From a virus: a stretch of DNA of 64,000 bases. The translations under genes were made by a program, and so were the position numbers. The notes beneath the pieces are model-generated. The model worked only from the letters and a program-made list of their open reading frames with translations. It ran no database searches and had not been told where the DNA came from. This document shows, piece after piece, positions 5,065-48,140 of the stretch. The stretch is taken from positions 1 to 64,000 of IMG/VR virus record IMGVR_UViG_3300044641_007991. One strand, given 5' to 3'. Numbering within the stretch: position 1 is the stretch's first letter; every line of letters begins with the position of its first letter.

Positions 5065-5853
5065 TTAGTATTTAAGTTTAAGTGATTCTAAATATTCATC
5101 TGATTTCATATATGTGCCTTTTGGTAATTTTAACCCATTAGCTTTGTATAATTCTTTTATTTCTTGATAAATTGGTCTGGCTGCTTTCGCTTTTTGAAAT
5201 GTGCCATGTAATCCTGGATTATTATTTACAAAAATGTTTTTTTCATTTTTAATTTGCGTATAAACTGGATTTGTATCTCCTAGGAAAAAATGCGTTCCAT
5301 CTTTTATTTTTACTTTAGATGGATGATTATCATTTAAAAAATTATGCGTACCATCTTTAATCCTTTTTTGCGCTAATTCCCGTTGAAATTCTCCGCCAAT
5401 CCAATTATGTGTACCGTCTTCAAGTCTTTTTTGTTGAATTTTTCTTTGAAATTCTCCATCTCCCAAACAATGATGCGTTCCATCATCAACTCGTTTTCTT
5501 TGTATTTTTTTCTGTTGTTCGGAAGTTGTTCCGCCATCTAATCCATTCTCTAATTTTAAATTAGCCCATTCTTCAGATTCAATTATATTATATTTTTTTG
5601 ATAGGTTAATTGCTGTAGCAACTAATACATTAATATCATTAAATAATTTGCACCATAGTGTATCAACATTCGTACCGTGTTTTTTTAAATGAGCTAACCA
5701 ATAATCTCCAGATCCATTATATTTAAATGGGTTTTTAGAATTAGTTTTACATAAATATTTTAAACCTGTTGATTTATGTTGTTTTATCATTAAATATGTT
5801 GGTTTAAAATTTTTCATTTGTTTTTCTGTTATATAAATATTTTCGCTAGACAT
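5065..5853 (-). CDS. Free-standing GIY-YIG-like (Seg-type) homing endonuclease A
   Basis: N-terminal FKPTYLMIKQH..TGLKYLCKT...Y.GSG.YW, followed by DGTH(N/F)F repeats; paralogous to 13126, 17600 and 25015. Confidence 0.75.
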   Translation of the reverse strand: MSSENIYITEKQMKNFKPTYLMIKQHKSTGLKYLCKTNSKNPFKYNGSGDYWLAHLKKHGTNVDTLWCKLFNDINVLVATAINLSKKYNIIESEEWANLKLENGLDGGTTSEQQKKIQRKRVDDGTHHCLGDGEFQRKIQQKRLEDGTHNWIGGEFQRELAQKRIKDGTHNFLNDNHPSKVKIKDGTHFFLGDTNPVYTQIKNEKNIFVNNNPGLHGTFQKAKAARPIYQEIKELYKANGLKLPKGTYMKSDEYLESLKLKY

Positions 5854-5925
5854 TATTCCTCCTTATAATTATAATGTTTAGTGCTGGTGGGATGTGGGAG
5901 TCCGCGACCAGCTATGTATTTATTA
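5832..5925 (-). promoter_or_regulatory. Endonuclease leader element, copy A
   Basis: Minus strand: TAATAAATA..GCTGG-TCGCG-GA..TC-CCA-CCAGC-ACTAAACATT..GGAGG..ATG TCT AGC GAA AAT ATT TAT A. Confidence 0.85.
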
Positions 5926-6432
5926 TATTACTTTGTTTACTGCAATTGAATTTCCAGCGCCAATATTAGTAATATTAAGTCTTCCATATGGCCAAGGAGT
6001 TGTTACTGTTGTATATGCAGTATTTGAATTAGCAACGGTAATTGGTAATGTGGCTAATGAGATCCAATGTTGTTGATCTGTTGATACTTCAATAGCAACA
6101 TTAGAACTGCCTCCAGTTGAGAATGCTTGAAGAACTGCATTAGGTGGATTAGTAAATTTAAAAGAAAATACTTCTTGTGGACCAGTTAAACCTGCTCCAT
6201 AATTTGGAGTTTTAGCAACCACACCCCACCCATCATACTGAGCATTTGAAAAATCAATAACGGCATTATTTCCAGAAACACTAGAAACTTTAGCTGCATA
6301 TCTAGCATCATTGTCTGTAAAATATAGAATTAAATCATTAGTTGCTTGAAGATATGGATTTGATTCAAAATTAATTTGTGTGTTGGCATAATCATATACA
6401 CCATATAAAGTTCTTGAAATTTCTGTTATCAT
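5923..6432 (-). CDS. Hypothetical, probably structural protein
   Basis: 169-aa ORF in the late structural operon. Confidence 0.5.
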   Translation of the reverse strand: MITEISRTLYGVYDYANTQINFESNPYLQATNDLILYFTDNDARYAAKVSSVSGNNAVIDFSNAQYDGWGVVAKTPNYGAGLTGPQEVFSFKFTNPPNAVLQAFSTGGSSNVAIEVSTDQQHWISLATLPITVANSNTAYTTVTTPWPYGRLNITNIGAGNSIAVNKVI

Positions 6433-7749: not shown

Positions 7750-7757
7750 TATTTATA
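7750..7757 (-). promoter_or_regulatory. T4-type late promoter TATAAATA
   Basis: Exact match upstream of structural gene 6453..7718. Confidence 0.7.
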
Positions 7758-9696: not shown

Positions 9697-9981
9697 ATGA
9701 ATCAAGCATATATTGGGTTTTTTTCTGATGTTATTATTCCTATTATTGCTAGTAGTGCACTAGGAAGTTTTATTTTCACAGCGTTAAAATTTGTTTTAGG
9801 TGATGTTATTACATCAGTTAGAACATTGGCGTCAATCGTTATGGCGCTGGAAAATAGAGTTAAAAATACTTCTAACGAATTAATTAAAATTGACGTTACT
9901 ATATCTGCTGTTTTAGGATTACGTCCAGATCTAGAACGTATTTCAAGATCAGATGGGCAACGAGACGCTCGCAGAGATTAG
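9697..9981 (+). CDS. Small membrane protein, holin-like (paralogue 2)
   Basis: Shares the L..RV....N....(L/I)D..(V/I)S..L pattern with 9405 and 10932. Confidence 0.5.
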   Translation: MNQAYIGFFSDVIIPIIASSALGSFIFTALKFVLGDVITSVRTLASIVMALENRVKNTSNELIKIDVTISAVLGLRPDLERISRSDGQRDARRD

Positions 9982-9986
9982 GGTTT

Positions 9987-10086
9987 TATAAATAAAGTAT
10001 AGGTCGCGAGTTCCGAGGCTCCACCTATTCTAAACATTCTTACAATCGTTCAAGGAGAACAATAATGCTCAGCAAAAATATTTATA
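9987..10086 (+). promoter_or_regulatory. Endonuclease leader element, copy B
   Basis: TATAAATA..ATAGG-TCGCG-AG..CT-CCA-CCTAT-TCTAAACATT..GGAG..ATG CTC AGC AAA AAT ATT TAT A. Confidence 0.85.
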
Positions 10087-10919
10087 TGCCATATTTTTAT
10101 ATTATCCGACATAAAGAAACGGGTAAACAATATGCTGGATCTAGATGGGCAAAAGGTTGTCACCCATCAGAATTTATGCAAAAAGGCGGATATACTACAT
10201 CATCTATAATAATTAATTCTATAATAGAACGGGAAGGCGTTGATGTATTTGAAATAATAGAAATTATAACTTTAGATGAACTTATAATTCCGTTTAGCGT
10301 ACAATCTGTATATCAATATGAAACATGGTTTTTAAACGAATATAATTGTGCAACTTCGCCTGATTGGTATAATAAACATAATAATGAGGGAATGGTATTT
10401 GGAACCTCAGAATTTTATGACAAATCTAAAACAACATGTTTAGAAAAATATGGTTACGAATATTGTTTACAAGCTCCAGAAATACAGGAAAAGTCTAAAC
10501 AAACTTTATTAGATAATTATGGAGTAGATTCTCCTGCAAAAAATGAAGAAATTTTAAATAGAATGAAAGACACCAATATAAAAAAATATGGTGTAGAATT
10601 TCCCTTACAATCTGACGTAATAAAAGAAAATACTAAATTAACTAATTTAGAAAGATATGGTTATGAATATGGGTTGCAATCGCCGATAATAAAAGAAAAA
10701 TCGAAACAGACTTGTTTGGAAGTATATGGAGTAGACCATCCATCAAAAGATCCAGAAATAAAAGAACGAATATTTAATACATTTAAAAAAACTAATTTAG
10801 AAAAATATGGCGTGGAATTTCATGTTAATATACAAGTTACTTGTCCATATTGTAATAAAATTGGCAATAAACCAATTATGATGCGATGGCATTTTAATAA
10901 TTGTAAATTAAAAACATAA
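10065..10919 (+). CDS. Free-standing GIY-YIG-like endonuclease B with LEKYG repeats and C-terminal CPYC/WHFNNC motif
   Basis: YFYIIRHKETGKQYAGSR N-terminus; repeated T(C/N)LEKYG(V/Y)E units. Confidence 0.7.
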   Translation: MLSKNIYMPYFYIIRHKETGKQYAGSRWAKGCHPSEFMQKGGYTTSSIIINSIIEREGVDVFEIIEIITLDELIIPFSVQSVYQYETWFLNEYNCATSPDWYNKHNNEGMVFGTSEFYDKSKTTCLEKYGYEYCLQAPEIQEKSKQTLLDNYGVDSPAKNEEILNRMKDTNIKKYGVEFPLQSDVIKENTKLTNLERYGYEYGLQSPIIKEKSKQTCLEVYGVDHPSKDPEIKERIFNTFKKTNLEKYGVEFHVNIQVTCPYCNKIGNKPIMMRWHFNNCKLKT

Positions 10920-10931
10920 TATGGACATAAT

Positions 10932-11228
10932 ATGGACATTACAGAAATAGGCGAGTTAATCTCAAAATACGGTTTTCCGACAGTTTCATCATTTTTTATG
11001 CTCAGAATGGTTCGTTACGTTTGGGATTTTACAATCAATGAGATTAACCCAGTTTTAGGTGAAGCTAATAAAGAGTTAATTGCTCTTATTGATAGAATAC
11101 GTCTTTGTGATAACGATCTTTTGAGATTAACTGCTAAATTAAATACAGTTCTTCAAATTCGTGAAAAGGCTTTATTACAACAAGATCAAGAAGAACCGCC
11201 AAAACCAAAACGTCCAAGATCAGGATAA
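10932..11228 (+). CDS. Small membrane protein, holin-like (paralogue 3)
   Basis: ISKYGFP TM segment, then LIDRIRLCDNDLLRL. Confidence 0.5.
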   Translation: MDITEIGELISKYGFPTVSSFFMLRMVRYVWDFTINEINPVLGEANKELIALIDRIRLCDNDLLRLTAKLNTVLQIREKALLQQDQEEPPKPKRPRSG

Positions 11229-11232
11229 TTAT

Positions 11233-11679
11233 ATGAGAAAACACCTATTAAAGTTGTTTTTTATTATGTGTTTTTCAATTGATGTTAACGCCTCTAATCT
11301 AGTTTATGAATTCAATAATCCATCATTTTCGGGAAATGGTTGGTCAACTCAAGTAATAACTCTAGAACAAATAGAATCCGCTCGAAAGCAAAAAATAAAA
11401 GATGATGCAGCAGCTGGCATAGCCAAAGCTGCAGCTGATGCTAAAAATAGCAATTTATCTAAATTTTTAGTTAATGTTGAGTCCAGGATTTACGCTCAAT
11501 TATCCAAACAATTAGCTGATCAAATGTTTACTGATAGTGGAGCAACATCAGGTACAATGGATTTTCAGGGAACATCTATTAATTGGGTTAAAGGTGCAAC
11601 TGATGTATCGTTAACAATTACAGAATCTAATGGTAATACCACTGATATTATAGTTCCTATTGGTCAGTTTGGATTTTAA
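11233..11679 (+). CDS. csgF: Curli assembly protein CsgF-like
   Basis: Signal peptide then LVYEFNNPSFSGNG (CsgF N-terminal NPSFGG motif); directly upstream of csgG; ATG at 11233 preferred over the track start. Confidence 0.75.
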   Translation: MRKHLLKLFFIMCFSIDVNASNLVYEFNNPSFSGNGWSTQVITLEQIESARKQKIKDDAAAGIAKAAADAKNSNLSKFLVNVESRIYAQLSKQLADQMFTDSGATSGTMDFQGTSINWVKGATDVSLTITESNGNTTDIIVPIGQFGF

Positions 11680-11680
11680 T

Positions 11681-12457
11681 ATGAAATATATGATTTTATC
11701 CATATTATTGCTTACAGGGTGTTCTCAAATTGCTTTGGATATTATGAGAGAAGATCCCGTTCCTATAACATCAAGAATCACATTAAGTAATAAATTACCG
11801 GAATTGGAAGGACCAGCAATACCAATTTCTATTTACGATTTTACTGATAAAACTGGGCAACGTAAACCATCAGACAAATTAGCTCAATTATCAACAGCTG
11901 TTCCACAGGGAGCAGAATCGTTTGTTATCAAAGCATTACAAGATTCAAAAAATTGGTTTAAGGTTGTTGAACGAGTTGGTTTAGATAATTTAGTTAAAGA
12001 GCGACAATTAATTCGCAATCAACGAGATGTTTACGAAGGAAAAGAATCTAAACCATTACCTCCATTATTAGTTAGTGGATTAATGGTAACAGGTAGCATT
12101 AGTGGATACGATTCTGATATTCGTACGGGTGGAATAGGGTTAAGGTTATTTAAACTTGGATTCACCCAAGAATATAGAGTTGATCAAATTACTATCTCGA
12201 TGAGATTAATTTCTGTTTCATCTGGGGAAGTATTAGTATCAGTGGCAACAACTAAAACGATTTATAGTTTTGCTAGTGATGCTGGTGTTATGATGTTTAT
12301 TGGAACTGGTAATGTAACTGCTCTAGAAGCAGAAGTTGGAAATAGCGTCAACGAACCTATTACTGAAGGTGTTAGAGTTGCTATTGAAGACAGTGTTTAT
12401 TCTATGATAATTGAAGGGGAAAAACGAGGTCTTTGGAAATTTAAAAAGGAAAAATAG
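11681..12457 (+). CDS. csgG: Curli secretion channel CsgG-like lipoprotein
   Basis: Lipobox LTGC; F.DKTGQRKP, STAVPQGA, WFKVVERVGLDNLVKERQLIR. Confidence 0.9.
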   Translation: MKYMILSILLLTGCSQIALDIMREDPVPITSRITLSNKLPELEGPAIPISIYDFTDKTGQRKPSDKLAQLSTAVPQGAESFVIKALQDSKNWFKVVERVGLDNLVKERQLIRNQRDVYEGKESKPLPPLLVSGLMVTGSISGYDSDIRTGGIGLRLFKLGFTQEYRVDQITISMRLISVSSGEVLVSVATTKTIYSFASDAGVMMFIGTGNVTALEAEVGNSVNEPITEGVRVAIEDSVYSMIIEGEKRGLWKFKKEK

Positions 12458-13048
12458 ATGAAAATCTTACAAACATATTTGATTATGTTTGTTATGCTCT
12501 TTGCTACTACTACATTTGCTAATGATATTTTTATTGAACAGGTTGGGAGTTTATCTGATATTACATTAACACAACAGGGTGTTGATAATCGTATTGGGAC
12601 AGCTCTTAATCCTTCATTTTTTGGTGGAAGTAGTGATGTGTCGACTATTGAACAAATTGGTTCTAGAAATGAATTAGATTTGATCGTAAATGGTGATAAT
12701 ACAACTGTTACATTAAGTACAACAGGTAATGATAATAAAGAAACAATTAATTGTGGAGTCAAAACTGCTGTGACATGTAACAATACTACAATCAATCATA
12801 CTATATCGGGTGATAATAATACTATTGACACTACAATTGGTGCTACAACTAATAGTAAAATGACTGTAACTGGTGATAGTAATGCTATTACTCATACAAG
12901 TACAAGTTCTGGTATTGTATCTGCTGATTTAACTTTAACTGGTAACAGTAATACAATTGATTTAACTCAAAGCGGAACTTTGGATAAGAGTATAAAAATT
13001 GAAAGTACTGGTTCTAACAATAATATTACTGTTAATCAATCCAATTAA
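12458..13048 (+). CDS. Curlin-like (CsgA/CsgB-type) secreted repeat protein
   Basis: Signal peptide plus repeated Q-x-G-x-x-N / G-D-x-N beta-arcade units; follows csgG. Confidence 0.65.
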   Translation: MKILQTYLIMFVMLFATTTFANDIFIEQVGSLSDITLTQQGVDNRIGTALNPSFFGGSSDVSTIEQIGSRNELDLIVNGDNTTVTLSTTGNDNKETINCGVKTAVTCNNTTINHTISGDNNTIDTTIGATTNSKMTVTGDSNAITHTSTSSGIVSADLTLTGNSNTIDLTQSGTLDKSIKIESTGSNNNITVNQSN

Positions 13049-13146
13049 TATAAATAGACGGTAGTCGCGGATCCCCCGATCCCACTACCTCTAAACATTT
13101 TTACACTTAATCAAGAGGATTAACAATGTCCAGCGCAAATATTTAT
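13049..13146 (+). promoter_or_regulatory. Endonuclease leader element, copy C
   Basis: TATAAATA..GGTAG-TCGCG-GATC..GATC-CCA-CTACC-TCTAAACATT..GAGG..ATG TCC AGC GCA AAT ATT TAT A. Confidence 0.85.
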
Positions 13147-13974
13147 ATTATCACAGAACAACAGCGTTTAAATTTTAAACCAACATATCTTTATATCAAA
13201 CAACATTCAGTTACTGGATTAAAATATTTCGGAAAAACGATTAAATCTGATCCAATAAAATATAAAGGATCTGGTATTAGGTGGTCAAAACATATAAAAA
13301 AACACGGAACTAAATTTGTTACCACTTTATGGTATAAATTATATACAGATATAGATGAATTATTATCCGTTGCTATAACTCTATCTGAAATTTATGATAT
13401 CGTGGATTCTGATTTTTGGGCGAATATTGTGCCAGAAAATGGGTTAACTGGCGGAGATTCTGAAACTGTTAGAAGGCAACAAAAAGAGAAAGTTGCAGAA
13501 GGAACCCATAATTTTTTAGGTGGGGAGATTGGGGGGAGTTTTTCAAGAGAACGAGTTTTAAATGGAACCCATAATTTTTTAGGTCCAGAATCAAATAGAA
13601 AGCGAATAGCTGATGGAACACATCCATTTTTAAATTCCGATTTTCAAAGAAATGTTCAATTAAAATTATTATCTGAAGGGACTCATATATTCCTTAATCC
13701 AGAATTTCGAGAAAATCAATCTAATAGAGTTAAAGAAATGAATGCAACAAACGTCTCTAATGGTACGCACCCTTTTTTAGGACCGGAGTTGAATAAAAAA
13801 CGAATAGCTGATGGGACACATCCTTTACTCACTTTATCCAAACAAAGATCTAATAGAAAAATATATCTTGACATAAAAGAATTAGCTAAAACATTAAAGA
13901 TTAAATTACCACCTGGGCTAAATATGAAATCTGATGAATTTTTATTGAAATTTAAAGACAAATATTTGACTTAA
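13126..13974 (+). CDS. Free-standing GIY-YIG-like homing endonuclease C
   Basis: FKPTYLYIKQHSVTGLKYFGKT...YKGSG; GTH(N/P)FL repeats; close paralogue of 5065..5853. Confidence 0.75.
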   Translation: MSSANIYIITEQQRLNFKPTYLYIKQHSVTGLKYFGKTIKSDPIKYKGSGIRWSKHIKKHGTKFVTTLWYKLYTDIDELLSVAITLSEIYDIVDSDFWANIVPENGLTGGDSETVRRQQKEKVAEGTHNFLGGEIGGSFSRERVLNGTHNFLGPESNRKRIADGTHPFLNSDFQRNVQLKLLSEGTHIFLNPEFRENQSNRVKEMNATNVSNGTHPFLGPELNKKRIADGTHPLLTLSKQRSNRKIYLDIKELAKTLKIKLPPGLNMKSDEFLLKFKDKYLT

Positions 13975-15065: not shown

Positions 15066-15779
15066 ATGAAAAAACTTGTTTTAGCACTATGTTTAGCGTT
15101 TTCTACTGCTGTATTTGCAGGAACTATTAACGAACAATGTCCGCAATTAACTGTAAACGGAACTCCACAATATGAATCTCAGCAAGGCGATCAAGAAATT
15201 TGTCATGCAAATTATGCAGTAATTCATAGATGCGGAGTAAAGGCTCCAGTTGCAGTATTTGAACATTTAACCAAAGAAGATATTACTGGTCCAGCTAAAC
15301 GAAAAGATAATTTTCACCCTGATTCTGATGTTTCCCCGCAATGTTCAGCTACTTTAGCCGATTATGCTACTGTTGGTAAAACTCATGATAGAGGACATTT
15401 ATCTCCAGCTGGAAACAATACTCAAAGTGCTGATATTATGAGCGAAAGTTTTGATTTGAGTAACATGGTAGCTCAGGTAGCAAACAATAATCGTGGGATC
15501 TGGAAACAATTAGAAACTAAAGAACGCGAAATGATTTCAACTGCAGGAACAGATTATTATATTATTTCTGGTGGCATTTTTGATCCTGGATACTCTGTAA
15601 CTGGTAATGGTTTGGGTATTCCAACTAGATTGTATAAAATAATTGTCGAGAAAAATAATAAATCCGTGCAAGCATATTTAATGCCAAATGCTGCGTTACC
15701 TGTGACAGATTTACCGAAATATCAAGTGTCGCTAGAAGAAGTTGAGCAAGCAACGCAAATGAAATTTAATTTAAAATGA
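15066..15779 (+). CDS. Secreted DNA/RNA non-specific endonuclease (NucA/Serratia family)
   Basis: Signal peptide; DRGHLSP, SNMVAQ...NRGIW..LE, IPT..YK. Confidence 0.9.
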   Translation: MKKLVLALCLAFSTAVFAGTINEQCPQLTVNGTPQYESQQGDQEICHANYAVIHRCGVKAPVAVFEHLTKEDITGPAKRKDNFHPDSDVSPQCSATLADYATVGKTHDRGHLSPAGNNTQSADIMSESFDLSNMVAQVANNNRGIWKQLETKEREMISTAGTDYYIISGGIFDPGYSVTGNGLGIPTRLYKIIVEKNNKSVQAYLMPNAALPVTDLPKYQVSLEEVEQATQMKFNLK

Positions 15780-17524
15780 GAAAAGTTTTATTATCTCCAT
15801 GGTTTTCGTTGGTAACTCTAGCATTAGTAATAGTGCTACGGGTTGCTGACCCTAGTTTCATAGAATCGATTCGACTTCGATATTTCGACACAATTATAAC
15901 AAGTCAGCAAGTTAAACCTTCTGAACAAATTCGTGTTGTTAATATTGATGATGAAACGATCAAACGCTATGGTCAATTCCCATTTCCGCGTGACAAATAT
16001 GCTGAGATAATCCAGACATTATTTGACCATCAAGCTGGATTAGTTGTTTTTAACGTATTCATGCCAGAATCTGATAGGTTTGGAAAGGACAATGAACTCA
16101 AAAAAATTATTGACACCTATCCAGTTATCTTACCTGAAGTTGGGGTTAATGATTCTACTGCTAGTGTTGCCCCTAAAATTGGCGTATCCGAAATCGGTGA
16201 ATCTGCCAGACCTTGGGCGCCACAGTACAAGGGAATACAATCTAACATCCCAGAATATCAGGGTGCAGCAGGCATTGGAGTCGTTAATACCCTCCCAGAA
16301 ATTGATGGAGTCACCAGAAGAATACCCATGGTTGTATCAGCCACAGATACTCTCTACCCGTCCATCTCGATGGAAACGCTTAGAGTTGCAGCTGGAGACC
16401 CTAGCTTTCAAATTAAGTCTAATGAATCGGGGATCGAAGCAGTTAGAATCCCTCAGTTTGGAAAAATTGATACTGATGAATTTGGAAGAATCTGGATCGA
16501 TTGGTCGAACATACCGATGGAATATTCCTTCAATAGATTACCCGATAGTTTTGATGGTGGAATTGTTATTGTCGGGCTTACTGGACGAGGACTCAATAAT
16601 CCTGTCGCAACAGCTAGAGGGAACGTCTATCCGCATCAACTTCAATCTACGGTATTAGATACAATTTTAAAAGGTACTAATATTTCTAGACCAGATTGGG
16701 CAACAGTTGTTGAATTATTATCAACATTATTATTGAGTATTGTTTCTATATTATTAGTGCGGTGGAAATATGGATTTATTCCTGTTATTACAGCTATTAC
16801 CTCTATACATTTTGGTGTTAGTTATATTTTTAACAATTATCATTACCTTTTGGACGCTACGATTCCTGTTCTGGGCATTTTTCTGGTGTATGCTCATAGT
16901 TTCACTGTTAAATTTATTACTGAACTAAACGCTAAATTGCAAATTAAACGACAATTTGGAACTTATTTAAGTCCTGCATTGGTAGAAAAGTTGCAAAAAA
17001 ATCCTGAGTTGTTAACTCTTGGTGGAGAATCTAGAGAATTGACAATTTATTTTTCTGATATTAGGTCATTTACAACGCTGTCTGAGCATTATAAAACTGA
17101 TCCCATGGGGTTAACCAATTTAATAACCCGATATATGGATAAAATGTTACCTATTATAATGAAAAATGAAGGTACTGTTGGAAAACTTATTGGTGATGCT
17201 ATTATGGCATGGTGGGGTGCTCCATTAGATGTAGAAAATCACGCATCAATGGCTATTAAAACTGCAAAAGAAATGGAAATAGCATTAGCAGAATTAAATG
17301 AAGAATTAATATCTGAAGGTAAACCTCCATTACATGTTGGTGCTGGTATTAGTACTGGAACTGTATTTGTTGGTAATATGGGATCTTCTGAAAGATTTAG
17401 TTATGATATATTAGGGGATGAGGTTAATCTTGCAGCAAGATTAGAAGGACAAACTAAAGGATACGGAGTATCTTTAATATTGAGTGAAAACGCATTAAAT
17501 AGATTAAAGTTTGAAAATGTATAA
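15776..17524 (+). CDS. CHASE2-domain adenylate/guanylate cyclase, N-terminal part of a fractured gene
   Basis: CHASE2 (VVNIDDE..GQFPFPRD, DGVTRRIP), three TM helices, class III cyclase motifs FSDIRSFT, KLIGDA, GNMGS, GDEVNLAARLE; stops before the ELD.V.VKGK segment. Confidence 0.88.
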   Translation: MRKVLLSPWFSLVTLALVIVLRVADPSFIESIRLRYFDTIITSQQVKPSEQIRVVNIDDETIKRYGQFPFPRDKYAEIIQTLFDHQAGLVVFNVFMPESDRFGKDNELKKIIDTYPVILPEVGVNDSTASVAPKIGVSEIGESARPWAPQYKGIQSNIPEYQGAAGIGVVNTLPEIDGVTRRIPMVVSATDTLYPSISMETLRVAAGDPSFQIKSNESGIEAVRIPQFGKIDTDEFGRIWIDWSNIPMEYSFNRLPDSFDGGIVIVGLTGRGLNNPVATARGNVYPHQLQSTVLDTILKGTNISRPDWATVVELLSTLLLSIVSILLVRWKYGFIPVITAITSIHFGVSYIFNNYHYLLDATIPVLGIFLVYAHSFTVKFITELNAKLQIKRQFGTYLSPALVEKLQKNPELLTLGGESRELTIYFSDIRSFTTLSEHYKTDPMGLTNLITRYMDKMLPIIMKNEGTVGKLIGDAIMAWWGAPLDVENHASMAIKTAKEMEIALAELNEELISEGKPPLHVGAGISTGTVFVGNMGSSERFSYDILGDEVNLAARLEGQTKGYGVSLILSENALNRLKFENV

Positions 17525-17621
17525 ATAATGTGTAGATCGCGATACTACTAATATCCATCTACTCTAAACATATTCTTAACACTATTACGAGGAACAGTTA
17601 TGTCCAGCGAAAATATTTATA
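17520..17621 (+). promoter_or_regulatory. Endonuclease leader element, copy D
   Basis: TATAAATA (contains the cyclase stop codon)..GTAGA-TCGCG-ATA..TAT-CCA-TCTAC-TCTAAACAT..GAGG..ATG TCC AGC GAA AAT ATT TAT A. Confidence 0.85.
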
Positions 17622-18511
17622 CACATACAATATCAGAATCACAACGATTAGAATTTAAACCTACTTGGTTATACATTAAATATCACCCAGTAACAGGCTT
17701 ATCTTATTTTGGTAAGACGATTAAAAATCCATACAAATATAAAGGATCTGGTCCATATTGGAAAAACCATATAAAAAAGTATAATAGTAAATTTGTAGAA
17801 ACTTTATGGTGTCATTTATTTGTGAATATTGATGAATTGGTTGAATATGCTTTATGGTTTTCTAGTGTGAACGATATTGTAGAATCCACATTATGGGCTA
17901 ATATGGTATTTGAAGATGGATTAGGTGGAAGAGGAGTAAGTGGTGCCGGTAATGGTATGTACAATAAACAGCACACAGAAGAAACGAAAAAATTAATTTC
18001 TGAAATAAAAACAGCTAATCCGGTAAAACTGTTTGCAGAAGATAATCCACGATTTGGGAAACCTGGAACATTTAAAAATAAAACCCACACTAAAGAATCT
18101 AAATTGAAAATTTCAAATTCTAAAAAGAATAAAACTTATGAAGAAATTTATGGCTCGGTTGAAAAAGCTCAAATAATGAGAGAAAAACGATCAACCGAAT
18201 CTAAAAATAGATCTGTATCTGAAATTACTAGAAAAAAATTAAGTTTAGCCAATATAGGAAAGACTAGAACTGAACAACAAAGATTAAATAATTCAAAAGC
18301 TCAAAAAGGATTACAAGCAGGATCCAATAACCCAAGAGCTTTAAAAATTAAAGCGATATCTCCAGAAGGCGAAATATTCCATATTCATGGAGAATTTAGA
18401 ATATTTTGCGAATCTAAATCATTATCTCAATCAATAGCAGGAAAAATATTGAAACATAACCATAAACCAAAATCCGGTAATTGTATTGGGTGGAGTTTTT
18501 CTTATGAATGA
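17600..18511 (+). CDS. GIY-YIG-like homing endonuclease D with NUMOD3-type motifs
   Basis: FKPTWLYIKYH..TGLSYFGKT; HTEETKKLIS, HTKESKLKIS. Confidence 0.78.
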   Translation: MSSENIYTHTISESQRLEFKPTWLYIKYHPVTGLSYFGKTIKNPYKYKGSGPYWKNHIKKYNSKFVETLWCHLFVNIDELVEYALWFSSVNDIVESTLWANMVFEDGLGGRGVSGAGNGMYNKQHTEETKKLISEIKTANPVKLFAEDNPRFGKPGTFKNKTHTKESKLKISNSKKNKTYEEIYGSVEKAQIMREKRSTESKNRSVSEITRKKLSLANIGKTRTEQQRLNNSKAQKGLQAGSNNPRALKIKAISPEGEIFHIHGEFRIFCESKSLSQSIAGKILKHNHKPKSGNCIGWSFSYE

Positions 18512-18770
18512 TTTTGTTGAACTCGATACAGTAGCAGTCAAGGGAAAAAAAGAAGGGATTAAGATTTTCACGGTAGCAAATCCACCACCAGAACATCAAT
18601 TATATCTAGAAGCATATTATGCTGGGGATTGGAAATCTGCTGCGATTATTTGTAAACATTTATCCGAACAACCAGGAGATCTTCAACATTATTATGAATT
18701 AATGTTAGAACGTATTTCTGGAGAATGTCCAGATAACTGGACTGGTACATATCACGCAACTTCCAAATGA
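18504..18770 (+). CDS. C-terminal part of the fractured adenylate cyclase
   Basis: MNDFVELDTVAVKGKKEGIKIF is the last strand of class III cyclases, followed by the usual Y..GDW..A...P..W.G....TSK tail; ATG overlaps the endonuclease stop. Confidence 0.8.
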   Translation: MNDFVELDTVAVKGKKEGIKIFTVANPPPEHQLYLEAYYAGDWKSAAIICKHLSEQPGDLQHYYELMLERISGECPDNWTGTYHATSK

Positions 18771-21289: not shown

Positions 21290-21635
21290 GAAAACGGTTT
21301 ATTCTGTTTCGAGGAAAACCGCAAAAACCCAACTATAATTTTAAGCTGCTAGAGCAGTAGAATTATAGAAAGCGTCGTTTTTAGCTTCGCCATTTACTTA
21401 TTTTATGCTGATTACGTCAGTCATCTCTCGATTCTCCAGTGTTCTTTGATCTCAACGTCGAATCTGTTCACCCCCATCAGAAACACACTTAAACTGGTCC
21501 GGCAGAATTTTTTCATTCCAGTTCGTTTATGTGACCGTCGTCACTACTTAGCTGCGGCAAAAGTATGTTTCTGGTGGAGGTGGGGGAATAATGCTATCCC
21601 CGTCCGCCAAAACTATTATAACACCTTCAACGAAT
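21290..21635 (-). ncRNA. ssrA: Circularly permuted (two-piece) tmRNA
   Basis: On the minus strand the 3' acceptor CACCTCCACCA (ends 21572) precedes the 5' GGGGGTGAACAGATTCGAC (starts 21475); G3-U70 pair; tag frame 21391-21341 reads GEAKNDAFYNSTALAA*. Outer ends approximate. Confidence 0.88.
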
Positions 21636-21895
21636 ACTTTAAAATCACACTGCATAAGGACATAACGGACTCAAACCGAGTTCTTTGATACTATCTTACC
21701 TTATCGAACCTGAACACCTAGTGTGATTTTAAAAAGAGCAATACATTTAACAGAAAGAGTGAGTCGTACCAATCTGCCACCCAACAGAAACGTCAATATA
21801 ACGGCATTGTCACTTTATCTAATAGACAGGGATATTTCCGGTTATATCATACGTCCCGTTCTCGCGATGCCCGAGGGTAAATGTATTAAATTTAT

Positions 21896-23495: not shown

Positions 23496-23935
23496 TCCAC
23501 AATTGTATAATCAACCATACCTTCTAAATTATTTTTAATAATATCTCGAATAATGTTCCAGTCACCACCTGCTAAACCAGCACCAATTAATGGTAACCCA
23601 ATTTTTTTACCTTTAAAATCCGTAGCAATTAATCGCATAGAATCATTGATTGCTTGATAATTTTGCTTTAGGTCATTATATCCAGGCATGTATTGAGTGT
23701 ACGCATTTACAATTGTTAAACCCTTATCCATATAGGTATGTGCGCTATATGAACCCAATTTTGTTATATCACCCTGTTCTGTTGATTTGTCTGACAAATA
23801 CGCTTCTGGATATCTATTCCTAATTTGTAGAGCAATCCCTGCGCCCATAGCGCAAAAACAATTACAACCATGAACGATAACATCGAACTCGCCAGCATCA
23901 AATAAATCTAATAAATCACCTTTAATAATTTTCAT
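23483..23935 (-). CDS. Macro domain (ADP-ribose processing) protein, T4 Tk.4-like
   Basis: GDLL, VHGCNCF..MGAGIA, PLIGAGLAGGDW. Confidence 0.88.
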   Translation of the reverse strand: MKIIKGDLLDLFDAGEFDVIVHGCNCFCAMGAGIALQIRNRYPEAYLSDKSTEQGDITKLGSYSAHTYMDKGLTIVNAYTQYMPGYNDLKQNYQAINDSMRLIATDFKGKKIGLPLIGAGLAGGDWNIIRDIIKNNLEGMVDYTIVEWQR

Positions 23936-24882
23936 TCTATATCCTCTAAAGTATTAGCAACAGTTTTATCATCCCTAACGCGAGAAAAAATTGGTAGGAA
24001 TAAAGATTTAATATCTGAATCTCGGTTTGAAATAATACAATTATATTTTACCTCGATAATTTTACCAACATAAGATTCTGGGTTATCTCGCTCACCTCGT
24101 TTATGTTTAAATCCAGAACCAACATTTACTCGCAATCGACCACAAGCAGTTTCACAAATTAATGATCCCAACATACCTTCAAATTGAGTTCCTGGAGTAC
24201 CATATTCAAAACCAACAACCAATAGATCCATAGGGTCTTCTGCTTTTAATTTTAATTGGTATTTAGATCGTTTGGCTTCCCATACACCATCCATTGCTTT
24301 AAGAATTCCGCCTTCTTCGCCTCGTTCTAGATTACGCTGATATTTTTGCATAACTTCTTCGCGAGAATTTACAATCTCGGATTCAACAATTTGTAATTTA
24401 GTTTGATTTTCTGGAACTGCTAGCCCAACAAATTTAAATCTTGTAGCATAACCAACTGAACAATATTCGTTTAAAAAATCATCATAAGGAATATAATCCC
24501 AGAGAACAACATACAACCCCTTAGCTTCTTCTGAGGTAATTGTTCCACGAACAGCTTTTGTTACATAACCATTAGATACTTTGCGTTCTGCTACTCGACC
24601 ATCAGGATAGCGCCACATTAATTCGCCATCTAGAATACATCTTTCATGTGTTGCAATTTCAATATCATCAAAACATGAGATATCTAGAATATTACCATTT
24701 CTGGTTGTAGCCGATACGAATTTTCCACCATCAAACTCTAGATTAATTCTAGAACTATCCATTTTACAATTATGGACCAGAATATTGTCAGCAAAAAAAT
24801 TATTAGTATTTTCGACCGTTATATCGTATAACAAATTATCACACTCTATCTCAACTACATTTTCTATTTTCATAGTTCTCAT
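23932..24882 (-). CDS. lig: ATP-dependent DNA ligase, C-terminal half preceded by a split-intein C part (24769..24882)
   Basis: YDITVENTNNFFADNILVHN|C intein end; then KMD (motif I), LDGEL, EGGILK, KLK, SLFLPIF. Confidence 0.9.
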   Translation of the reverse strand: MRTMKIENVVEIECDNLLYDITVENTNNFFADNILVHNCKMDSSRINLEFDGGKFVSATTRNGNILDISCFDDIEIATHERCILDGELMWRYPDGRVAERKVSNGYVTKAVRGTITSEEAKGLYVVLWDYIPYDDFLNEYCSVGYATRFKFVGLAVPENQTKLQIVESEIVNSREEVMQKYQRNLERGEEGGILKAMDGVWEAKRSKYQLKLKAEDPMDLLVVGFEYGTPGTQFEGMLGSLICETACGRLRVNVGSGFKHKRGERDNPESYVGKIIEVKYNCIISNRDSDIKSLFLPIFSRVRDDKTVANTLEDIE

Positions 24883-24913
24883 AATAAATTTCCAATTTAA
24901 AGCTGTATATTGA

Positions 24914-25036
24914 TAATAAATAGTTGACCGTTTAAATGAATATTAAACGATGCTTATCGCGGAATAGCAGTTCCCATAAGCACTAATCATCAACTATCAA
25001 ATATAGGAATCGATATGACCAGCAATAATATTTATA
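24914..25036 (+). promoter_or_regulatory. Endonuclease leader element, copy E
   Basis: TAATAAATA..extra hairpin..TGCTTA-TCGCG-GAA..TTC-CCA-TAAGCA-CTAATCAT..AGGA..ATG ACC AGC AAT AAT ATT TAT A. Confidence 0.82.
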
Positions 25037-26103
25037 CTATTACCGAACAACAACGATTAAATTTTAAACCGACTTATTTAATGATTAAACAACATTCAAT
25101 AACAGGTAAAAAATATTTTTGTAAAACTGTAACATCCAACCCTTTAAAATATTCTGGGTCAGGGGATTATTGGTTAAAACATATAAAAAAGCACGGAGTT
25201 CAATTTGTCGAGACAATATGGTATAAATTGTATACTGATATAGACGAATTAGTAAACTATGCTTTACAATTTTCTATCGAAAATGATATTATTAAATCTA
25301 AACTCTGGGCGAATAAAATGTTAGAAAACGGGTTATCTGGCGGGTTATCTAAAGATTTGTTATCAGAACAGACCATATTAAATATGGTTAATGCTCAATT
25401 AAATAGATCCCCAGAAGCTAAATTTATCTCTAAAACAAAATATAAAAATACTATACAGAATAGATCAGAGTTTAAAAAATTAGAACTATCTAATAAAATT
25501 AGAAAAACAAAATTAGCTATGACTTCTGAACAAAAAGCAGAACAAAAACGTAAAGAATACGAAACAAAAGCAAATAGATCCCCTGAACAAAAAGCAGAAC
25601 AAAAACGTAAACAAAGCGAGTCTTATTTAAAGACATTTAATTCTAAATCTGATGACAGTAAACGCGAACAATATACAAAAAGAGCAAAAACAATGTCACT
25701 AAAATCTGAAGAAGAATTAGCTTCTATCTACGCAAAAATAAGTCGCCCAGGTAAATTAAATCCTATGTACGGTAAACCTCGCCCAGATTTAATTGAAAAT
25801 AATAAAAATCCTATAAAACGACAAAAACAAATACAAACGCGCAAAAAATTAGATCTTGAGAGAAAATTACGTAGATTTAAAATTGAAACTGAGATTAAAT
25901 TTTACGAGAAAATATTAGAATTATCTTCAATCCACTCAACGTACACTAAATCCGGAAAAATAAATTTTAATACATTAGCTAAATATTTTCCTGAGTATAA
26001 TGGTTCAACTCAAGCAACAACAGCAGCTCTGCGTAGATTTTATGAATATTACACATCAACTAAAATAATATCGGATGACGATAATTCATCTACTCTAATA
26101 TAG
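25015..26103 (+). CDS. GIY-YIG-like homing endonuclease E, antiparallel between the two ligase halves
   Basis: FKPTYLMIKQHSITGKKYFCKT...YSGSGDYW; SPEQKAEQKRK repeats. Confidence 0.78.
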   Translation: MTSNNIYTITEQQRLNFKPTYLMIKQHSITGKKYFCKTVTSNPLKYSGSGDYWLKHIKKHGVQFVETIWYKLYTDIDELVNYALQFSIENDIIKSKLWANKMLENGLSGGLSKDLLSEQTILNMVNAQLNRSPEAKFISKTKYKNTIQNRSEFKKLELSNKIRKTKLAMTSEQKAEQKRKEYETKANRSPEQKAEQKRKQSESYLKTFNSKSDDSKREQYTKRAKTMSLKSEEELASIYAKISRPGKLNPMYGKPRPDLIENNKNPIKRQKQIQTRKKLDLERKLRRFKIETEIKFYEKILELSSIHSTYTKSGKINFNTLAKYFPEYNGSTQATTAALRRFYEYYTSTKIISDDDNSSTLI

Positions 26104-26819
26104 GCGTCTTTATTGATACACCAAATTAAATGATTTCCAGTTAAAGGTTTGGTGTATTCTCCGTTTTCCATTTTAAGTTTATACCATTTATGGTGTATAG
26201 TTTGTTTATTAACAAATTTATCTAATACCGTATTATATTCAACTTTATTTGTATGGTGATTAAATGATTTAACTTTAATATCTTTAATATCAGATTCAAT
26301 TAATTGTTTTATCGTCATATTACCCTCTGTTGTATTAAGAACCCAATCTTCCGATAAACACTGAAAAATAGCTGGATATTTAATATTCTTTTCGGTTTTC
26401 TCATTGAATTTGCCGCACAATAAAACTGGATATTCTGGAATTAAATCTTTCCAAATTTTATTTACAGTTTTTGCGCTAACGCCACATTTTAAATCGCGTT
26501 CGATAATACGATATAAAACTTCTTGATCATCTACTGGCAATTTACCTAGTATCATAGATACATATTCGATAGCTTCATTACCAGTAAGCTCTCTATTACA
26601 AATATTAACTTTAATGCTGGATAAAGCGCCAATCAAATCTACGGTAATACCGTTATTTGGAGAAACTGGAGGACGTTTTTTAATCCAATATTTAATTCTT
26701 GGGTTATAAGCAAATAAAAATACAGCTCGCACAACCGGATTATCAACATATGATTTTAATAGAGCGATTTTGTCGTTAGTGCCTGATGTTGCTGCTAGTT
26801 GATTCAATAAATTTAACAT
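26049..26819 (-). CDS. lig: ATP-dependent DNA ligase, N-terminal half followed by a split-intein N part (26049..26360)
   Basis: T4 gp30-like N-domain (RDLKCGVS.KTVNKIW, YPAIFQ), then CLSEDW...LTGNHLIW...RVDEL intein blocks A/B. Confidence 0.9.
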   Translation of the reverse strand: MLNLLNQLAATSGTNDKIALLKSYVDNPVVRAVFLFAYNPRIKYWIKKRPPVSPNNGITVDLIGALSSIKVNICNRELTGNEAIEYVSMILGKLPVDDQEVLYRIIERDLKCGVSAKTVNKIWKDLIPEYPVLLCGKFNEKTEKNIKYPAIFQCLSEDWVLNTTEGNMTIKQLIESDIKDIKVKSFNHHTNKVEYNTVLDKFVNKQTIHHKWYKLKMENGEYTKPLTGNHLIWCINKDAYIRVDELSSSDIILVDV

Positions 26820-26850
26820 AATTTTTTCCGTAGTATACAGTTATTGTACT

Positions 26851-27888
26851 CTATTGTGCGCTAGAAGTCAAGCACTTTTTTGATAATTGCTGTACAGCTA
26901 AATTCTTGGCTTTACTTTCGCACATCATGTCTGCCCAGCTAAGGTGCGATAATGCCCAATCGTTGACGGCAGTGTTCCAGTAGAAATCTGAATGCGCACG
27001 CAATTTACTTTTAGTATGACCTGCGGCTATAAGAGCTGCGAGATCTGGTAGAGTATGGGGACAATGATTGGCGAGAGTATCTTCTCGGCTAATAGAATAA
27101 TGAATAACAGGGCGAACGCCTCGCCAACTTTGAATAACCTGAGCAATCCTCGGGTCATCTGGCGAGATGTATTCTCCAGTTTTAATAAAATGATGGTGAA
27201 TATCCAGAACGACAGGAATCCTGTCAGAAATACTAAGACAAGCATCAAGTCCATGAGCGAACTCCTCATTTTCAATAGTTATACAATTTTTAGCGACATC
27301 GCTGAGTCGGTCGTAGGCAAGTAAAAAACCTGCTGGACCAAGTTTACCCGAGATATGTACATTGATTTTCATATCTTGAAACACACGACCATAACCCATC
27401 CAACGAGCCATATCTGCATGGTATTCGAACTCGGCTATGCTATTTTCTACTACATCTGGACGATCACTGGCTAACACGCAAAATTGACCAGGATGAAAAG
27501 ACAAGCGCACACCACGAGCACGAGCAACGGATCCGATAGAGTCAAAGCCTGTTTGTAATAATTCTTTAACATGTGGTTGCTGATAAAAATAACTATAATC
27601 AGCATGAGTGTATACTGGAAGAATATCGCTGGATAAACGTACCATCCTTAATTTGTCATCAAGTGTTCCTACTTTTTCGACTAATCTGCGAGCGGCTGTA
27701 ATATTTTGTTTGACCAAAGATAATAATTTAGCTTCAGCAGTTGATTTGATTTGACGGTTAAGCCAAGCAACGGTGGTGGTTCCGGTATTATATTTCTTGC
27801 AATCGTCAGTTGATTTAATACCATCAACTTGATCAGGGCGATCGATCCATTTACAAGCAAAACCTAGACGAGACATAACAAACTCCAT
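26851..27888 (-). CDS. uvsE: UV-damage endonuclease UvsE
   Basis: RLGFACK, RLSSD, RLSFHPGQF, ITIENEE, LDIHHH, RAHSD, ESKAKN. Confidence 0.92.
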   Translation of the reverse strand: MEFVMSRLGFACKWIDRPDQVDGIKSTDDCKKYNTGTTTVAWLNRQIKSTAEAKLLSLVKQNITAARRLVEKVGTLDDKLRMVRLSSDILPVYTHADYSYFYQQPHVKELLQTGFDSIGSVARARGVRLSFHPGQFCVLASDRPDVVENSIAEFEYHADMARWMGYGRVFQDMKINVHISGKLGPAGFLLAYDRLSDVAKNCITIENEEFAHGLDACLSISDRIPVVLDIHHHFIKTGEYISPDDPRIAQVIQSWRGVRPVIHYSISREDTLANHCPHTLPDLAALIAAGHTKSKLRAHSDFYWNTAVNDWALSHLSWADMMCESKAKNLAVQQLSKKCLTSSAQ

Positions 27889-31997: not shown

Positions 31998-32066
31998 TTC
32001 AAAATTCCTATCAAGTTAAGGTATAGAGTTATTGTACTCTAATTCAAGTCAAATGTCAAGCACTTT

Positions 32067-32314: not shown

Positions 32315-32413
32315 TATAAATATATTATGCTAGTCGCGGTGCTACCAACACCCACTAGCTCTAAACATTTTCATTCAGATAAGGATTACCTATGTTCAGC
32401 ACAGATATTTATA
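32315..32413 (+). promoter_or_regulatory. Endonuclease leader element, copy F
   Basis: TATAAATA..GCTAG-TCGCG-GTG..CAC-CCA-CTAGC-TCTAAACATT..AAGGA..ATG TTC AGC ACA GAT ATT TAT A. Confidence 0.85.
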
Positions 32414-33372
32414 CCATACTATCATCAAAACCTCATAATCAACATTATTTAAAACGATACGTTAAATTCATAGAATATTGTAACAATATTAATGCGCATT
32501 ATACTGGTTATGTAGAATATCATCACATATTACCAAAAGCTAAGACGCTATTCCCTGAATATAAAAATTTTAAACAAAACCCCTGGAATAAAATAAAACT
32601 AACTCCAAGGCAACACTTTATAGCTCATTGGATGTTGTGGAAAATATTCGGCGGTTTTATGGCTTACGCATTTTCTATAATGCGTAGAAAATCTAAAGTT
32701 CAATCAGAAAGATATTTTCGATTAAATAGCAAATCGTATGGAGAATTGAAAATAGCAGTTAGCAAATCTCAATCAACCAGAATCATATCAAAAAAAACGA
32801 TAGAGAAAATGAAAAAATCTCAAAAAAATAAACCTAAAATTCGATGCCCTCATTGCGATAAAATCGGGGATGAATCTAACATGAGAAGGTGGCATTTCGA
32901 TAATTGTAAAGTTTTTACTGATAAATCTGTACACGAAGTAAAACAAAAATCTGATATTGTAACTTGCCCTCATTGTGGAAAAACCGGAAAAGAACAAGGT
33001 ATGTTGGCTAACCATTTCTCAAATTGTAGTGTTATTAGAGGAGATTACCGAAAAGTAAAAGATAAGATAACATGTCCACATTGTAAAAAAGAAGGCGCGA
33101 ACACATATGGGTTTAAGGTTTATCATTTCGATAATTGTAAAATTTTAACGGGAAAGATTATACGCGCAGTAGAATATGATTTATCTATAGTTAAGTGTCC
33201 GCATTGCGATAAAGAAGGGACAATGCACGGAATGAAATCAAGTCATTTCGAACACTGTCCTACACTCAAACCAGAATTACCGAAAATACAATGCCCGCAC
33301 TGCAAAAAAGAAGGTAATAACAACGGCTATTTTAAATCTCATCATTTTGATAAGTGTAAACAAAAAATTTAA
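32392..33372 (+). CDS. HNH-like (Mob-type) homing endonuclease F with five CPHC zinc-ribbon repeats
   Basis: EYHHILPK...LTPRQHFIAHWML; (CPHC.K.G......HF..C) x5. Confidence 0.78.
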   Translation: MFSTDIYTILSSKPHNQHYLKRYVKFIEYCNNINAHYTGYVEYHHILPKAKTLFPEYKNFKQNPWNKIKLTPRQHFIAHWMLWKIFGGFMAYAFSIMRRKSKVQSERYFRLNSKSYGELKIAVSKSQSTRIISKKTIEKMKKSQKNKPKIRCPHCDKIGDESNMRRWHFDNCKVFTDKSVHEVKQKSDIVTCPHCGKTGKEQGMLANHFSNCSVIRGDYRKVKDKITCPHCKKEGANTYGFKVYHFDNCKILTGKIIRAVEYDLSIVKCPHCDKEGTMHGMKSSHFEHCPTLKPELPKIQCPHCKKEGNNNGYFKSHHFDKCKQKI

Positions 33373-35304: not shown

Positions 35305-35417
35305 TATAAATAAAGTATAGATTAAAAATGTCTATACAACACAAAAAAAGCCAATCGCGATACTGGTAATATCCATTGGCACTAATACTAATCAGGAGTA
35401 TCAGCATGAATATTTAT
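35305..35417 (+). promoter_or_regulatory. Endonuclease leader element, copy G
   Basis: TATAAATA..extra hairpin..GCCAA-TCGCG-ATA..TAT-CCA-TTGGC-ACTAATAC..GGAG..TCAGC ATG AAT ATT TAT. Confidence 0.8.
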
Positions 35418-36901: not shown

Positions 36902-36976
36902 AATCTACCTCTCATTGTTTAGTATAGAGTTATTGTAACCTATGCTACTCTAAAAGTCAAGCACTTTATAAAAAAG

Positions 36977-48059: not shown

Positions 48060-48140
48060 TATTATTTCTCCTTATGAAAAAGACTGATTTTATAAACTAT
48101 TTATAGTTATAAGTGATTGTCTTTCATAGGAGACATAATA

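Follow-up and report, generated by a model that had tools for sequence, protein, structure and literature searches.

Why do seven endonuclease genes of one phage begin with the same leader, and why does each of these leaders end in a late-promoter octamer that points back, on the opposite strand, towards the promoter of the gene itself? The question arises at positions 13,049 to 13,146 of the window, i.e. the whole stretch of 64,000 nucleotides analyzed here, which comprises the first 64 kb of a 74,280-bp phage contig from IMG/VR (estimated completeness 29%). The window has a G+C content of 34%, and its gene content includes tail-fibre-like, baseplate-like, endolysin, GroEL, NAMPT and RNA-ligase genes. 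Seven free-standing endonuclease genes were identified, with starts at 5853 (minus strand), 10065, 13126, 17600, 25015, 32392 and 35406 (copies A to G, respectively), and all seven match homing-endonuclease families. The endonuclease of copy G matches the GIY-YIG Pfam domain, others match NUMOD3, DUF7487 or PHROG homing-endonuclease families, and the product of copy F is, by appearance, of the HNH type, not GIY-YIG. In T4-like phages, the principal mobile elements are free-standing homing endonucleases; to our knowledge, their harmlessness to the carrier has been explained only in a few T-even cases, by sense-strand hairpins and autorepression.

A common leader between converging octamers

One leader is common to all seven endonuclease genes. 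It starts with the octamer NATAAATA, followed by P1 (5 bp), TCGC, P2, CA and P1', and continues with the box nCTAAACAT, a spacer that contains the SD, and the coding start ATG yyC AGC nnn nnT ATT TAT. In agreement with the initial annotation, which placed a late-promoter core opposite the 3' end of each leader, all seven genes carry an opposite-strand late-promoter octamer within their first codons (an exact TATAAATA in six copies and AATAAATA in copy G).

At copy C, the forward octamer TATAAATA is located at 13049–13056 on the plus strand and the antisense octamer, also TATAAATA, at 13140–13147 on the minus strand, in codons 5–8 of the gene 13126–13974. The corresponding positions, again with TATAAATA on both sides, are 9987–9994 (plus) and 10079–10086 (minus) in copy B (gene 10065–10919), 17520–17527 (plus, overlapping the stop codon of a cyclase gene) and 17614–17621 (minus) in copy D (gene 17600–18511), and 32315–32322 (plus) and 32406–32413 (minus) in copy F (gene 32392–33372). 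For copy A, whose gene (5065–5853) is on the minus strand, the antisense octamer TATAAATA lies at 5832–5839 on the plus strand, and the forward octamer is AATAAATA (5917–5924, minus). Copy E has its forward octamer, AATAAATA, far upstream of the hairpin (24915–24922, plus) and the antisense octamer TATAAATA at 25029–25036 (minus; gene 25015–26103). The forward octamer of copy G, TATAAATA at 35305–35312 (plus), is separated from the main hairpin by an extra perfect hairpin (TATAGA-N9-TCTATA), which, together with an A7 run, occupies 35313–35349 between the forward promoter and P1; the antisense octamer AATAAATA is at 35411–35418 (minus), and the ATG (35406) directly follows the untranslated CAGC. 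The first 16 bases of copies B and G are identical (TATAAATAAAGTATAG).

The 3' end of the leader is read, in six copies, as codons 3–7 of an M-x-S-x-N/D-I-Y block, and in copy G the ATG occupies the NNN slot and AGC (35403–35405) is untranslated; both points had been described correctly in the initial annotation. The S-x-N-I-Y block is distinct from the catalytic GIY motif, which lies further downstream, and is common to GIY-YIG and HNH enzymes.

Exact TATAAATA octamers occur at 13 sites in the window, 11 of which are in the cassettes (5 forward and 6 antisense). The two others, at 7750–7757 and 48098–48105 (both on the minus strand), are located 32–45 nt upstream of tail-fibre-like and baseplate-like genes, a position consistent with T4-type late promoters. 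This distribution is not due to chance: compared with 8-mers of the same composition, for which the median is 19 sites, TATAAATA is one of the scarcest, with 2 sites outside the cassettes. As proof of promoter avoidance, this scarcity is weak, other TATA-rich 8-mers being equally rare. An eighth cassette of the same phage lies outside the window, at contig positions 69990–70140 (around 70026). It has the box CTAGACAT, an A-run before the hairpin, a forward TATAAATA 23 nt upstream and the antisense octamer TATAAGTA, which is read there as the codons ACA AAT ACT TAT.

Three of the cassettes have neighbors of some interest in their own right. Directly upstream of cassette C, after the endolysin gene, there is a curli-like module (11161–13048), with CsgF-like and CsgG-like ORFs, so named from the look of their sequences, followed by a curlin-repeat protein (Pfam PF07012). 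At 15776–18770, the forward octamer TATAAATA of cassette D contains the end of a CHASE2-adenylate/guanylate cyclase ORF, the cyclase domain of which breaks off at position 156 of the 183 in the profile; a short ORF (18486–18770) that overlaps the 3' end of endonuclease D may be the remainder of the cyclase. At 23932–26819, a DNA ligase is encoded in two minus-strand halves, with endonuclease E between them on the opposite strand. The C-half (23932–24882, minus) has ligase and OB domains and a weak intein-splicing match, and endonuclease E overlaps the ORF of the N-half by 55 nt. This split of a DNA ligase with intein pieces resembles the layout of the 'fractured genes' described by Dassa et al. 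2009 (PMC2677866).

Nucleotide constraint and promoter spacing among relatives

Relatives of the leader were collected by pattern scans of viral contigs, and all counts refer to the matches listed; because the relatives share ancestry, these counts exceed the number of independent events. Scanning for the hairpin and the CTAAACAT box yielded at least 46 distinct standard-type leaders; among the 46 listed, the antisense octamer was TATAAATA in 15, TATAAGTA in 16 and AATAAATA, GATAAATA or CATAAATA in 11, and the forward octamer was NATAAATA in 39. A variant-box scan yielded at least 112 distinct leaders, most of them compact, i.e. with CAGC directly before ATG as in copy G, and this arrangement is the commonest among the relatives in the matches listed. 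An unbiased sample was drawn by scanning with the RNA body alone, which avoids circularity (76 distinct true leaders among the 80 matches listed); it replaced a regular-expression search for unbiased extra copies, which had given only 2. The genes preceded by the compact cassette are highly diverse (GIY-YIG, HNH, Cys-rich and others). This form is present in well over 150 distinct contigs, many of them from freshwater samples, and a single genome, among the few checked, may contain as many as 4 copies.

When the reading of the core TA(T/C)TTA was compared across 212 distinct leaders among the matches listed, the translation proved to be x-I/T-Y for 158 of them, Y-L for 17 and I-F-I for 12. The core is thus kept in three reading frames among the relatives listed, and the constraint therefore acts on nucleotides, not protein, as had been argued earlier from copy G. 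Conservation of codons 3–7 across homologues agrees with this conclusion: in the standard-type leaders listed, codon 7 is TAT in 46 of 46, codon 5 ends in T in 46 of 46, across ten different codons, and codon 3 is AGC in 45 of 46, and the encoded amino acids vary.

These data bear directly on our initial reading of the block, according to which the antisense octamer is a by-product of an N-terminal S-x-N-I-Y peptide encoded in AT-rich codons. The preferred codons of this phage are indeed those that such a by-product would use (AAT, 79%; ATT, 62.5%; TAT, 81% of Tyr codons). However, AGC, which accounts for only 10% of the Ser codons in this phage, is used in all six translated copies, and TCC is rare as well; the invariant third base of codon 5 persists under ten different codons in the leaders listed; and the block is shared by GIY-YIG and HNH enzymes, apart from the catalytic GIY motif. 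Contradicted, in addition, by the three frames and by the presence of the core beside an untranslated CAGC, codon bias was ruled out as the source of the octamer, and we regard it as extremely improbable.

The spacing between the cores and the body of the leader is similarly constrained. Among the 76 unbiased leaders listed, the antisense core TAAATA is exact in 58, located 4–6 nt from the G of GCUG (5 nt in 45), and the forward core is exact in 71, located 3–6 nt from the first G of P1 (5 nt in 50); the background rate for such a core match is 0.5%. Within one mismatch, the core was found in 74 of the 76 leaders listed on the antisense side and in 71 of the 76 on the forward side. On both sides, T is at the predicted position −1 and G at +1, and the invariant G next to the antisense core is the first base of the conserved antisense fold. 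Because the octamer of T4 late promoters spans positions −13 to −6 (PMC2988020) and the modal gap here is 5 nt, the conserved G is the expected +1 on both strands. The antisense transcript is therefore predicted to start at the G opposite the C of CAGC.

In 16–39% of the relatives listed, the antisense core is TAAGTA instead of TAAATA (16 of the 46 standard-type and 12 of the 76 unbiased compact leaders listed), and the eighth copy of the same phage has this form, too; the change was never observed in the forward promoters of the leaders listed. Of 50 T4 late promoters listed, 32 match the octamer perfectly, A is found at −13 in 9, and the majority of the remainder deviate at a single position (PMC2988020). 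Since T4 promoters themselves deviate, the 16% share of TAAGTA is not out of range for late promoters of T4.

Strand of the conserved helices

The CTAAnnnn box pairs with eight bases ending in CAG, and this pairing, which joins the box behind the hairpin to the region of the start codon, constitutes helix P3; CAG provides its last three bases, which pair with CU(A) of the CTAAACAT box. Variant boxes (CGCT, TGCT, CAGT, CATA, TATA, TGTT and others) have matching partners, indicative of compensatory changes. CAGC is kept in copy G because it is part of P3. The pairing of AGC with GCT near the forward promoter, which the initial annotation had suggested, was rejected in view of the pairing of CAG with the box and of the compensatory changes in the variants; GCT at the 5' end is an inconsistent feature and, in some copies, is the start of hairpin P1.

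To which strand the helices belong can be read from the distribution of wobble pairs. Among 91 distinct leaders in the matches listed, 98.6% of the 1542 cells of the whole structure pair in the antisense orientation, with 178 G-U pairs; in the sense orientation, 87.5% of the cells pair, with 7 G-U pairs. For P3 alone, 98.3% of the cells are paired in antisense vs. 69.1% in sense (same 91 leaders). As controls, column shuffles gave 80.7% paired cells, and sliding partners gave at most 50.6%. P1 is nearly all Watson-Crick among the leaders listed (473 of 495 cells), and its non-Watson-Crick pairs on the gene strand are 21 A-C and 0 G-U. In P3, the gene-strand mismatches of the compact leaders listed number 64 A-C and 7 G-U; for the standard leaders listed, the figures are 19 A-C and no G-U. 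An A-C mismatch on the gene strand is a G-U pair on the opposite strand. P2 was uninformative as a strand indicator, with about equal counts of G-U and A-C (11 vs. 8), so that P1 and P3 decide. By their wobble-pair pattern, these two helices show, at the level of predicted pairing, that the conserved structure belongs to the antisense strand.

Energy-based predictions point in the same direction. In the antisense orientation, RNAalifold predicted both hairpins (−18.1 kcal/mol); in the sense orientation, only P1/P2 was predicted (−13.1 kcal/mol), without P3. The single-sequence MFE was lower for the antisense strand in 94 of 100 relatives among the leaders listed. In the window, 7 of 7 copies have the same predicted antisense fold, with P3 starting from base 1–2, the anti-SD in the loop, P1/P2 and a U-rich tail, and the antisense MFE (−18.5 to −25.7 kcal/mol) is below that of the sense strand in 7 of 7. 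The predicted RNA spans the SD in all window copies and the AUG in six of them.

The RNA predicted for copy C extends over 13050–13134 (minus), with +1 at the G opposite C13134, and has an MFE of −23.8 vs. −21.5 kcal/mol for the sense strand. It would fold into the 5' hairpin P3 (CUGGACAU paired with AUGUUUAG, anti-SD in the loop), the P1/P2 hairpin (13060–13089) and the U-rich tail, of which the forward octamer at 13049–13056 forms part. For the other copies, the predicted RNA and the antisense vs. sense MFE values (kcal/mol) are as follows: copy A, 5845–5926, plus (−25.7 vs. −17.6); copy B, 9987–10073, minus (−21.6 vs. −14.1); copy D, 17520–17608, minus (−18.7 vs. −10.5); copy F, 32315–32400, minus (−22.8 vs. 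−16.0); and copy G, which has the compact form, 35338–35405, minus (−18.5 vs. −11.5; z = −3.19). The predicted RNA of copy E (24940–25023, minus) has a poor U tail and faces the DNA ligase C-half (23932–24882, minus).

The 3' end of the fold also differs between the strands. Of 48 leaders listed, 22 have a forward core that is set apart from P1, and there P1 is bordered by a run of A (longest run 5.7 on average, 9 at most), which on the antisense strand is a U-run straight after the hairpin; on the sense strand, only 2–3 T follow the hairpin in the leaders listed. In copy G, U7 directly follows the antisense hairpin. A simple terminator scan did not call these hairpins because of their internal loop.

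Conceivably, the antisense fold could act as single-stranded DNA, or within a longer antisense transcript begun elsewhere, with TATTTAT serving as a binding or processing site. The near-complete Watson-Crick pairing of P1 noted above would suit a DNA hairpin, in which G-T is the least harmful mismatch. However, the core is the phage's own late-promoter core, at the same spacing to the G that opens the conserved structure, and the U-run after the hairpin suits an RNA terminator; we therefore consider this explanation very improbable.

The tail and the neighboring genes are also pertinent to the possibility that the antisense promoter is mainly an outward promoter for a gene displaced or split by the insertion (the DNA ligase C-half at copy E, the RNA ligase at copy G), the structured RNA being the leader of that gene. 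Copy E faces the intein-bearing ligase C-half, copy G the RNA ligase and copy F NAMPT, all on the minus strand; the tail of the hairpin in copy E is a poor terminator, and endonuclease insertions are known to embed promoters of host genes (PMC2988022). However, an antisense transcript of copies A to D would be directed against the neighboring genes instead of leading into them, copy G has its U7 straight after the hairpin, and the A-run (U-run in antisense) abuts the hairpin in the relatives listed. This makes the outward promoter a rather improbable explanation of the cassette, and a role in the expression of neighboring genes would be at best occasional. Thus, of the outward transcription of cut-off genes proposed in the initial annotation for copies E and G, the former is possible, given the poor tail, and the latter is unlikely, given the U7.

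A further alternative dispenses with the antisense RNA altogether. Under this scenario, the two ends of the leader pair as the closing stem of a T4-style translational mask, with the forward UAUAAAUA pairing with UAUUUAUA in codons 5–8 of a read-through RNA; the start region would be locked in read-through transcripts and free in late transcripts, which start after the 5' arm. Folding predicts this stem in 6 of the 7 read-through RNAs of the window (pair probability 0.41–0.99), and the design is known for I-TevI, segB, mobE and gene e of T4 (PMC2988022); hairpins containing TATAAATA are interpreted in this way by Dassa et al. (PMC2677866). Part of the pattern is expected in any case because two converging cores of the same sequence will always be complementary within a read-through RNA. 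However, among the leaders listed, the complementarity between the 5' flank and the 3' block of the same leader was no better than in shuffled pairings (permutation p = 0.32), core positions −12 and −13 showed no covariation (56 of 90 matches vs. 57.8 expected, p = 0.87; and p = 0.08), and position −5 matched in only 15 of 90. Such a stem would consist of 6–10 A-U pairs around a loop of ~80 nt and would leave the SD uncovered; it fails in the 22 of 48 leaders listed in which the forward promoter is 8–39 nt away, and it leaves unexplained why G-U pairs are found on the antisense strand only. The closing stem, which had been put forward earlier as an alternative to an antisense RNA, is thus predicted by folding but, lacking covariation, was rejected as a conserved feature, and a mask of this kind is an unlikely account of the leader.

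A putative antisense RNA and known regulatory systems

The reading that we favor is that a late antisense RNA, complementary to the endonuclease leader, most likely restrains the nuclease. That an antisense RNA starting near GCU would cover the start region, as the initial annotation proposed, is supported by the observed motif, its 5-nt spacing, its independence of the reading frame and the strand of the fold as judged from wobble pairs, along with the predicted U-run. Under this model, TATTTATA in the start region would be a T4-type late promoter on the opposite strand, from which an antisense RNA of 65–90 nt would be made late in infection, starting at the G opposite CAGC. This RNA would begin with the 5' hairpin P3, whose loop holds the anti-SD, and continue with the P1/P2 hairpin, at which transcription would terminate, and a U-rich tail overlapping the forward promoter. 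Being a perfect complement of the 5' leader in the late mRNA of the same endonuclease, the RNA would pair with this leader and so lower its translation or trigger its cleavage, with the result that a potentially harmful nuclease would be restrained. Collision of the two converging polymerases may add to the repression.

On balance, we lean towards a broader interpretation, in which the ~85-nt leader would be a complete, portable small-RNA gene, nested head-on in the promoter and start region of the endonuclease, and would have spread, in T4-like phages, to hundreds of mutually unrelated genes for GIY-YIG, HNH and other endonucleases. The stems of the cassette differ between copies within one genome, and such copy-specific stems would make each RNA a private, antitoxin-like brake. 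If this is the case, a self-contained antisense brake would represent a new level in the regulation of such selfish genes and would be among the very few regulatory small RNAs of lytic phages. It would also explain the DNA-level identity of the first codons in unrelated nucleases, the movement of the cassette as a unit and, provided that the element is the same, the conservation of the hairpins of Dassa et al. 2009. Nucleases of unrelated families share the cassette, which occurs in many uncultured phages from marine and freshwater habitats.

Several known systems resemble the proposed arrangement in part. In IS10/Tn10, a promoter on the opposite strand, within the 5' end of the gene, drives RNA-OUT, a short stem-loop RNA that limits translation of RNA-IN. 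The analogy lies in a mobile, potentially harmful gene and in an RNA, predicted in the present case, that is complementary to the ribosome-binding region of the mRNA. Unlike in IS10, the gene here encodes a homing endonuclease and belongs to a lytic phage, and the promoters on both sides are predicted to be T4-type late promoters; the RNA would have two hairpins and would apparently extend over the entire leader, the first base of the mRNA included; the stems differ between copies in one genome; and the arrangement is predicted from sequence. Similarly, in type I toxin-antitoxin systems such as hok/sok, a cis-encoded antisense RNA over the 5' region of a harmful gene's mRNA blocks translation. 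In contrast to hok/sok, there is here no evidence of toxicity of the endonuclease to phage or host, nor of a differential-stability logic, and the two RNAs would be synthesized simultaneously, late in infection.

Among phage homing endonucleases, I-TevI, I-TevII, I-TevIII, segB and mobE of Aeh1 have translational masks in which the late promoter lies within a hairpin (PMC2988022). As in the present leaders, the homing-endonuclease genes concerned are immediately preceded by a late promoter, and a conserved RNA structure, which restricts expression in the I-TevI-type masks, is found at their ribosome site. However, masking is due to a hairpin of the sense RNA in which the SD is sequestered and whose 5' arm contains the promoter, whereas here the main hairpin is downstream of the promoter, the SD is in a loop, and the start-region helix pairs well in antisense only (98.3% vs. 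69.1% in the leaders listed). In the leaders listed, no sense-strand hairpin sequestering the SD was found, P3 being absent also from the RNAalifold prediction for that strand.

The closest description of the leader itself appears to be that of Dassa et al. 2009 (PMC2677866), who report hairpins in 15 of 16 leaders of free-standing endonucleases from marine metagenomes, ten of them with TATAAATA, and two mutually complementary conserved motifs, for GIY-YIG and other endonucleases that split phage genes. The element is probably the same as, or related to, the cassette analyzed here. It was interpreted as a sense-strand translational hairpin, and no antisense promoter, strand test or small RNA is mentioned in the paper. 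Hairpins and TATAAATA ahead of such genes were thus already on record in 2009.

An antisense RNA over a homing-endonuclease gene has been detected in cyanophage S-PM2, namely CfrI (Millard et al. 2010, as summarized in PMC2984593). CfrI resembles the RNA proposed here in belonging to a T4-like marine phage, the late promoter of which is NATAAATA. It differs in its length (~225 nt) and in linking the endonuclease gene to psbA; furthermore, it is not a portable 5' cassette, and no two-hairpin fold common to many genes is described for it. Our literature search found no paper presenting the cassette as an antisense RNA gene. A search of the whole window against Rfam 15 gave no gathering-score match except for tmRNA, region 9900–13300 gave no match at E ≤ 1 on either strand, and megablast against a phage collection gave no match.

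The tmRNA gene, located at 21293–21683 (minus), is a permuted two-piece gene (Rfam RF04321, 85.5 bits; alpha_tmRNA, 65.2 bits) and is unusual cargo for a phage. Between 26828 and 62862, on the minus strand, there are at least 13 copies of a ~55-nt repeat (e.g. 32031–32059, 36932–36960 and 26843–26871), which reads AAAAAGTGCTTGAC-N17-TACAAT on that strand, often followed by an inverted repeat; this set looks like the early, sigma-70-type promoters of the phage. Tandem repeats within ORFs were observed at 43605–44023 and at 1–692, consisting of an 18-nt unit present 16 times and, in a tail-fibre-like ORF, of a 99-nt unit present 5 times.
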